From Escherichia coli (GTDB lineage: Bacteria; Pseudomonadota; Gammaproteobacteria; Enterobacterales; Enterobacteriaceae), in NCBI RefSeq assembly GCF_003334355.1, contig NZ_QOWP01000037.1: a stretch of DNA of 31,776 bases. One strand, written 5' to 3'. A program made the position numbers and the translations under genes. Positions 29,679 through 30,458 of this stretch are shown here, piece by piece. Position 1 is the stretch's first letter; every line of letters starts with the position of its first letter. Under the pieces are notes generated by a model. The model saw only the letters and a list, made by a program, of their open reading frames with translations. It did no database searches and had not been told where the DNA came from.

Positions 29679-30458
29679 CTATACCGTAATTAATTTTACC
29701 CGTGTCTTCTGCAATGCCAGTTTATCCACCTCTGACACAGCATCGTCGGTAATAATAATGTCGATTTTTTCGATTGGCAGTACCTGATTAAAACCGCGAC
29801 GGTTAAATTTCGATGAATCGAGAACGGCAATCACTTTATTAGCGGCGGTGACCATCGCCCCGCTAATCGAATAACCTTCATTAAAGGTCGTAATACCATT
29901 AACCGCATCAATACCATCAGCACCGACAAACATTAAATCGGCATTAATATCCTGCAATGAACGCTCGGCAATGGAACCATGCATCGAGCGCGTTTTATGG
30001 CGGACCGTGCCACCGCAGACGACCAGAGTAATGTCTTTATTTTCGGAAAGGGCAAACGCTGCCGGGAGACTGTTGGTAATCACCGTGATATTTTTGGCGG
30101 TCATTAATCCTTCGGCGATAAGCATTGTCGTACTTCCGCTGTCGAGAATAACGGTCATCCCTTCGTGGATCATTTTGACTGCCGCCTGCGCTATTCTGTT
30201 TTTTGGCGCGCTGGCGAGCTGAAAACGCTCTTTAAACCCGACTTCCTGGGTCTCGGTTTCACTATTACCGGACATTATTTTCGCCGCACCGCCATGAAAG
30301 CGCGTAACCACGCCTTTTTGTTCGAGAAAGCGCAAATCGGCACGGATTGTCGCTTCCGAGGCAGCAAATACTCCCGCCAGATCCTGAACAAGCACGGTTC
30401 CCTGTTCATTCACTAATTGGATGATCTTATTCCTTCGCTCGAATGAATTCATCGTCAT
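29679..30458 (-). CDS. gatR: DeoR-family repressor of the galactitol operon, GatR (intact)
   Basis: 259-aa uninterrupted ORF with an N-terminal DeoR HTH (RRNKIIQLVNEQGTVLVQDLAGVFAASEATIRADLRFLE) and a C-terminal sugar-phosphate-binding domain. Confidence 0.85.
   Translation of the reverse strand: MTMNSFERRNKIIQLVNEQGTVLVQDLAGVFAASEATIRADLRFLEQKGVVTRFHGGAAKIMSGNSETETQEVGFKERFQLASAPKNRIAQAAVKMIHEGMTVILDSGSTTMLIAEGLMTAKNITVITNSLPAAFALSENKDITLVVCGGTVRHKTRSMHGSIAERSLQDINADLMFVGADGIDAVNGITTFNEGYSISGAMVTAANKVIAVLDSSKFNRRGFNQVLPIEKIDIIITDDAVSEVDKLALQKTRVKLITV

Follow-up and report, generated by a model that had tools for sequence, protein, structure and literature searches.

An intact galactitol repressor gene, gatR, and an IS186 end just upstream of gatD in an Escherichia coli genome

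We analysed a stretch of 31,776 nucleotides of Escherichia coli DNA (contig NZ_QOWP01000037.1 of assembly GCF_003334355.1), hereafter the window, that carries gatR, the gene of the galactitol repressor. The reading that we hold with high confidence is that this gatR is wild type and very probably encodes a functional repressor, and that the lesion of the gat locus is found instead next to gatD, where an IS186 element lies 33 bp upstream of the gene.

Results

The gatR coding sequence spans 29679..30458 on the minus strand, as established from the list of open reading frames and from the annotation of identical DNA in strain PSS-12, and has 259 codons counted from its first ATG. In the open reading frame listing of the window the frame runs uninterrupted from ATG to stop, with no internal stop codon and no insertion. 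The original prediction had described an intact 259-aa gene without insertion, giving no strand, and had allowed for a premature stop overlooked in a hand reading; its description stands and there is no such stop. In the nucleotide-identical DNA of PSS-12, the RefSeq/PGAP annotation places the start at the ATG two codons downstream (window position 30452), yielding a product of 257 aa (WP_001295426.1). The 259-aa protein is hence the longest reading of the frame, and the true start is either of two ATGs 6 bases apart.

Both domains of the DeoR/GlpR family are found in the product: an N-terminal helix-turn-helix DNA-binding domain of the DeoR type (HTH_DeoR, PF08220, E 2.9e-16; residues 8-60, 30279..30437, minus strand) and the C-terminal DeoRC domain (PF00455, E 4.1e-51; residues 85-238, 29745..30206, minus strand), a sugar(-phosphate) sensor and oligomerisation domain. 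With these Pfam matches a chance open reading frame is not a concern, and the structure of a DeoR C-terminal domain (PDB 7l6l) also matches the protein (E 1.9e-11). The gene lies directly downstream of gatD on the same strand and converges with yegS, an order shared with K-12, HS, NCM3722 and PSS-12. Domains, neighbours and the absence of any amino acid difference from K-12 thus bear out the naming of this frame as the DeoR-family repressor gene gatR. gatD itself, encoding galactitol-1-phosphate 5-dehydrogenase, is intact (346 aa; 30558..31598, minus strand) according to the same two sources, i.e.: the list of frames and the annotation of identical PSS-12 DNA.

NCBIfam has no model specific for GatR; the highest-scoring models in that collection are those of AgaR, with 232.9 bits, and SrlR, with 226.3 bits. 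Both scores fall under the curated equivalog cut-offs (260 bits for AgaR, NF040755; 350 bits for SrlR, NF007753), so the protein is neither of the two.

Alignment with K-12 agreed with the earlier statement that gatR of that strain is disrupted by an IS element. In MG1655 (NC_000913.3), the annotation divides gatR (b4498) into two fragments flanking an IS3E at 2170171..2171428, so that the reference is not equally intact. When the window is aligned to both K-12 fragments, nucleotide 305 of gatR is the last one before the break, which falls in codon 102, where the DeoRC domain begins. A GAC triplet stands on both sides of IS3E in K-12, a 3-bp duplication seen in the alignment and as a 3-bp overlap of the blastn matches; in the window the same target is empty and holds a single GAC (30154..30156, minus strand, codon 102), as alignment, blastn overlap and K-12 annotation concur.

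Removing IS3E and one GAC copy from K-12 gives a reconstructed gatR of 780 nt. Compared to it, the window gene has 12 synonymous and no non-synonymous changes (0 of 259 residues differ), and the same GatR protein is encoded by K-12 once IS3E is excised, by HS, by NCM3722 and by VL40. More distant alleles are nearly as conserved in protein: that of an ST131 strain shows 25 nucleotide differences and one conservative replacement (I198V), and that of an O157:H7 strain 11 nucleotide differences and, again, one conservative replacement (E243D). The restriction of the K-12 differences to synonymous sites, together with the single replacements in ST131 and O157:H7, indicates purifying selection on gatR.

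The functional value of this allele can be approached through published work. Constitutive expression of gat in MG1655 has been ascribed to the insertion in gatR (PMC3045373; PMC4072538; PMC5850726; bioRxiv 10.64898/2026.01.05.697630), in accord with the earlier statement that the IS makes the K-12 operon constitutive. When Sousa et al. exchanged the MG1655 gatR pseudogene for its counterpart from E. coli HS, the gat operon was regulated again (PMC5850726). The product of HS gatR is WP_001295426.1, identical to the GatR of the window, and this identity with a protein that restored regulation lends indirect experimental support to an active repressor here. The repressor is therefore very probably functional, a judgement made from sequence identity: its N-terminal helix-turn-helix would bind operators, its C-terminal DeoRC domain would sense the inducer, and the protein would keep gatYZABCD, the galactitol operon, silent in the absence of galactitol. 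As a matter of nomenclature, one passage of PMC5850726 calls the MG1655 insertion 'IS1'; the K-12 record and our alignment identify it as IS3E.

A gene can be intact in sequence and yet silent or decaying, for example through loss of its promoter, in which case gat would be constitutive as in K-12. Our scan for consensus promoters and terminators over 29500..31776 returned no promoter above the expectation from shuffled sequence and no terminator, so that no gatR promoter passed, and in the mouse gut a restored gatR was repeatedly inactivated de novo (Sousa et al., PMC5850726). On the other side, alignment shows no difference from K-12 in the gatD-gatR spacer (30459..30557, minus strand) or at the 5' end of gatR, the whole of 27782..31632 is identical to PSS-12, not one residue is changed with respect to the functional allele, and all 12 of the 12 differences from K-12 are synonymous. 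We regard a silent gatR as very improbable. Within the spacer, a hand-read sigma-70-like pair, TTCACC-N17-TACACT (30481..30509), is a weak candidate for a gatR promoter, matching consensus at 8 of 12 positions and lying below the scan threshold; from this pair we infer that gatR might have a promoter of its own. A 9-bp G+C-rich hairpin follows gatD (30530..30552) and is present in both the minimum free energy and the centroid folds, with a z-score of only -1.1 for the region. Given this score and the null result of the scan, we do not firmly claim a separate transcription unit for gatR.

We surveyed 5426 complete E. coli genomes for the presence of gatR at the megablast level, which yields prevalence counts that are blind to point mutations and small frameshifts. 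The gene is carried by 5110 of them and gives no match in the remaining 316. In 4757 genomes a single joined place covers the gene, a count that includes 36 genomes with the gatR/IS1 junction of E. coli B/BL21; contiguous gatR is hence found in about 4720 of 5426 genomes (some 87% of all and 92% of carriers). Among 60 evenly sampled records, gatR was full length and in a single piece in 54. The exact K-12 gatR/IS3E junction occurs in 345 of the 5426 genomes, and the examples that were sampled are laboratory derivatives of K-12. In BL21(DE3) (NC_012971.2, 2067983..2069532), gatR is broken by IS1 at a site different from that of IS3E, and the corresponding target in the window (30220..30227) is empty. 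Since the insertion in B is independent of the one in K-12, gatR was lost separately in the two main laboratory lineages.

The K-12 lineage itself is not uniform. Strain NCM3722 has an intact gatR (NZ_CP011495.1, 3410851..3411624), in agreement with a published account (PMC3045373), and also an intact gatC; its gatR is nucleotide-identical to that of MG1655 minus IS3E, and to that of HS as well. IS3E must therefore have entered gatR within the K-12 laboratory pedigree. Taken together, the uninterrupted gene is the ancestral and usual state in E. coli, and IS3E (in K-12 of the MG1655 type) and IS1 (in B) are lesions of laboratory lineages.

If gatR is ordinary, the DNA upstream of gatD is not. 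When 20000..31776 was used as the query, almost all genomes ceased to match at window position 31632, and the final ~145 bases match many copies on chromosomes and plasmids. These bases are the right end of an IS186 (IS4 family), placed at 31632..31776 on the minus strand and reaching the window end: positions 31629..31776 agree at 148 of 148 bases with positions 1198..1345 of K-12 IS186A, its right end, inverted repeat included. The boundary is uncertain by ~3 nt because the first few matched bases double as target sequence. The window stops 145 bp into the element, whose transposase gene would read toward gatD.

The unoccupied site, as found in K-12 and PSS-12, is TTAAGGGGGATAACCTCCCCCTCAGG, of the form G5-N7-C5, and in the window a remnant of this target (GGGGG-ATAACCT-CCCCC) is recognised by sequence comparison in the gatC-gatD spacer at 31618..31631. 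The junction between gatD and IS186 reads GGGGGATAACCTCCCATAAGCGCTAAC. The uninterrupted spacer measures 47 bp, and the insertion point within it is separated from the gatD ATG by 33 bp and from the gatC stop codon by 14 nt; consequently no coding sequence is cut and gatD keeps its Shine-Dalgarno sequence. A preference of IS186 for GC-rich targets is reported in PMC3903273, which cites Chong et al. 1985.

A junction at the very end of a contig invites the suspicion that the assembly was mis-joined at a repeat, the more so as an IS terminus lies at each window end (that of an IS110-family element at 1..~70, that of IS186 at 31632..31776), as is typical of short-read contigs. The break, however, coincides exactly with the end of IS186 and falls squarely inside a canonical G5N7C5 target, and the identical 217-bp junction is present in a finished chromosome, that of E. 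coli VL40, with a matching 11-bp duplication on the gatC side. A chimeric join is thus unlikely, and we give it the lowest probability of all the explanations considered here, slightly below that of a silent gatR.

VL40 (NZ_CM177011.1) is the only complete genome sharing the gatD/IS186 junction (1 of 5426). A second IS186 copy adjoins its gatC ~26 kb away, a full 1.34-kb copy of the element is seen, and the 11-bp duplication GGATAACCTCC is divided between the flanks of the two copies. In this strain the gatC-to-metG segment has the reverse orientation, i.e.: a ~26-kb inversion has taken place between the two IS186 copies, and as a result gatYZABC and gatD-gatR stand at separate places.

In the window, gatYZABC and the gatY promoter/operator lie beyond the end, where the arrangement may be a simple insertion, an inversion or a deletion. 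What the sequence does show is that the direct link of gatD to gatYZABC and to the gatY promoter is broken. The lesion that we propose is accordingly the IS186 at the G5-N7-C5 target between gatC and gatD, which would detach gatD from the genes and the promoter with which it is normally expressed. Expression of gatD, and hence galactitol catabolism, would then be impaired or uncoupled from control by GatR, although gatD could still be expressed if transcription from gatYp, or from the promoter of the IS186 transposase, ran through into it. It had been predicted from the intact repressor that galactitol catabolism is probably still repressible; this overlooked the IS186 end 33 bp upstream of gatD, and with gatD parted from gatYZABC and the gatY promoter, regulated catabolism cannot be assumed.

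The opposite case has evidence of its own and deserves a hearing. If the intact repressor went together with a complete, galactitol-inducible pathway, IS186 would be a simple insertion, either crossed by transcription or without effect for some other reason. Such a reading is compatible with a GatR identical to the functionally tested allele, with an intact gatD that retains its Shine-Dalgarno sequence, with an insertion 14 nt after the gatC stop that need not damage any coding sequence, and with a transposase reading toward gatD. Yet at least 1.3 kb of IS would stand between gatD and gatC or the operon promoter, the only complete genome with the junction (VL40) has its operon split by an inversion, and gatYZABC is outside the window. 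We therefore find a complete pathway unlikely, though far more plausible than either a silent gatR or an assembly artefact. A more specific version of the preferred reading, in which impaired or uncoupled gatD is the lesion, is that this is a natural isolate with a working GatR in which gatD was lost or uncoupled by IS186, perhaps with a later inversion between IS186 copies like that of VL40. We put this forward tentatively, as having a little less than an even chance.

The remainder of the window bears on the origin of the strain. Aligned blocks are 96.1-99.7% identical to K-12 (0.3-4% divergence), and the window has neither the K-12-type gatR allele nor the K-12 gene content around it (PR-X with ogrK/yegZ, and yegJ). 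The 629-bp PR-X remnant of a P2 phage (ogrK, yegZ) that stands beside cyaR in K-12 (30184..30812 of the extracted K-12 locus) has no counterpart here. The IS3E site in gatR at 30154..30156 is also empty, but this is not decisive: NCM3722 is a K-12 strain and lacks IS3E as well, so an intact gatR alone does not exclude K-12. The claim that the sequence does not come from a K-12 lineage is therefore correct in its conclusion, on account of the 12 gatR SNPs, the lack of PR-X and yegJ, the divergence of the aligned blocks, and an additional sib/ibs unit and a toxin-antitoxin remnant near asmA (both described below), and wrong in taking the intact gatR as its proof.

Other features of the region are worth recording. 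At 27720..27816, cyaR is followed by an unoccupied attachment site of the P2 type, in which PSS-12 holds a full P2-like prophage. A 50-bp stretch at 11951..12000 takes the place of a ~785-bp K-12 segment containing yegJ and the first yegI codons (13936..14720 of the extracted K-12 locus), so that yegI (10055..12004) and pphC (11992..12753) abut. Between yegL and mdtA lie three tandem SIB RNA units of the sib/ibs type I toxin-antitoxin kind (13556..13704, 13891..14033 and 14218..14360), one more than the two of K-12 (sibA and sibB). The window opens with ~70 bases that belong to one terminus of an IS110-family element, also seen in strain ARL09/232, and between this element and asmA, at 273..774, there are a RelE/ParE toxin remnant and an HTH antitoxin gene that are absent from K-12. 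With an IS terminus at each end, the window has the look of a short-read contig.

Discussion

An intact gatR is the default of E. coli and has little weight as a discovery. The lesion in K-12 gatR has been documented since 1996 (Nobelmann & Lengeler 1996, cited through PMC4072538, ref. 83), so that the intact gene is nothing new. Nor does it make the useful strain-typing marker that had been proposed: as the state of a clear majority of complete genomes (~87%), its intactness is weak evidence for typing. It is only the presence of IS3E in gatR that is informative, marking K-12 of the MG1655 branch, while its absence says nothing.

For the phenotype, the prediction hinges on IS186 upstream of gatD and not on gatR. 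IS186 could make the strain Gat-negative or sensitive to galactitol in spite of its intact repressor. Phosphorylated hexitols are toxic when they accumulate. If gatYZABC were still inducible and gatD silent, the strain could even be galactitol-sensitive through a build-up of galactitol-1-phosphate.

No papers came up in a literature search combining IS186 and gatD. We consider the insertion in the gatC-gatD spacer mildly new. IS insertions and frameshifts have hit the locus repeatedly, in laboratory and natural strains alike (IS3E, IS1, IS186 and frameshifts of gatC), and these repeated lesions fit the published picture of gat as being under fluctuating selection in the gut. Should the tentative scenario of a natural isolate that lost or uncoupled gatD be true, the strain would be the natural equivalent of those gat loss-of-function variants whose sweeps are seen when evolution is followed experimentally in the mouse gut, and the site would count as an IS186 target in the gat operon that had gone unnoted. 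As to gatC, it is annotated as frameshifted in strain 751, an ST131 blood isolate, and as a pseudogene in MG1655; with the 316 complete genomes that give no gatR match, this points to frequent decay of the gat locus in nature.

Set against known systems, the repressor is the familiar one. The E. coli GatR of K-12 (b4498) occupies the same yegS-gatR-gatD locus, with the difference that the copy in the window is uninterrupted; at the nucleotide level the distance from the K-12/HS allele amounts to 12 differences, all of them synonymous. AgaR, SrlR (GutR), GlpR and DeoR share with GatR the layout of HTH_DeoR followed by DeoRC in ~255 aa, and what sets GatR apart from them is its genomic setting in the gat operon. 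PSS-12, identical to the window over 27782..31632, differs from it in bearing a P2-like prophage next to yegR and in having an uninterrupted gatC-gatD spacer. The inserted element is likewise a known one: the liking of IS186 (IS186/IS421, IS4 family) for GC-rich targets matches the G5-N7-C5 site found here, whereas its location in the gatC-gatD spacer is shared with a single one of the 5426 complete genomes, and one of its ends is visible in the window. That genome, VL40, has a gatD/IS186 junction identical over 217 bp and an identical GatR protein, but it belongs to a different strain, with 83 differences over 9.2 kb aligned. The ~26-kb inversion is a feature of VL40, and the window ends before it could show one.
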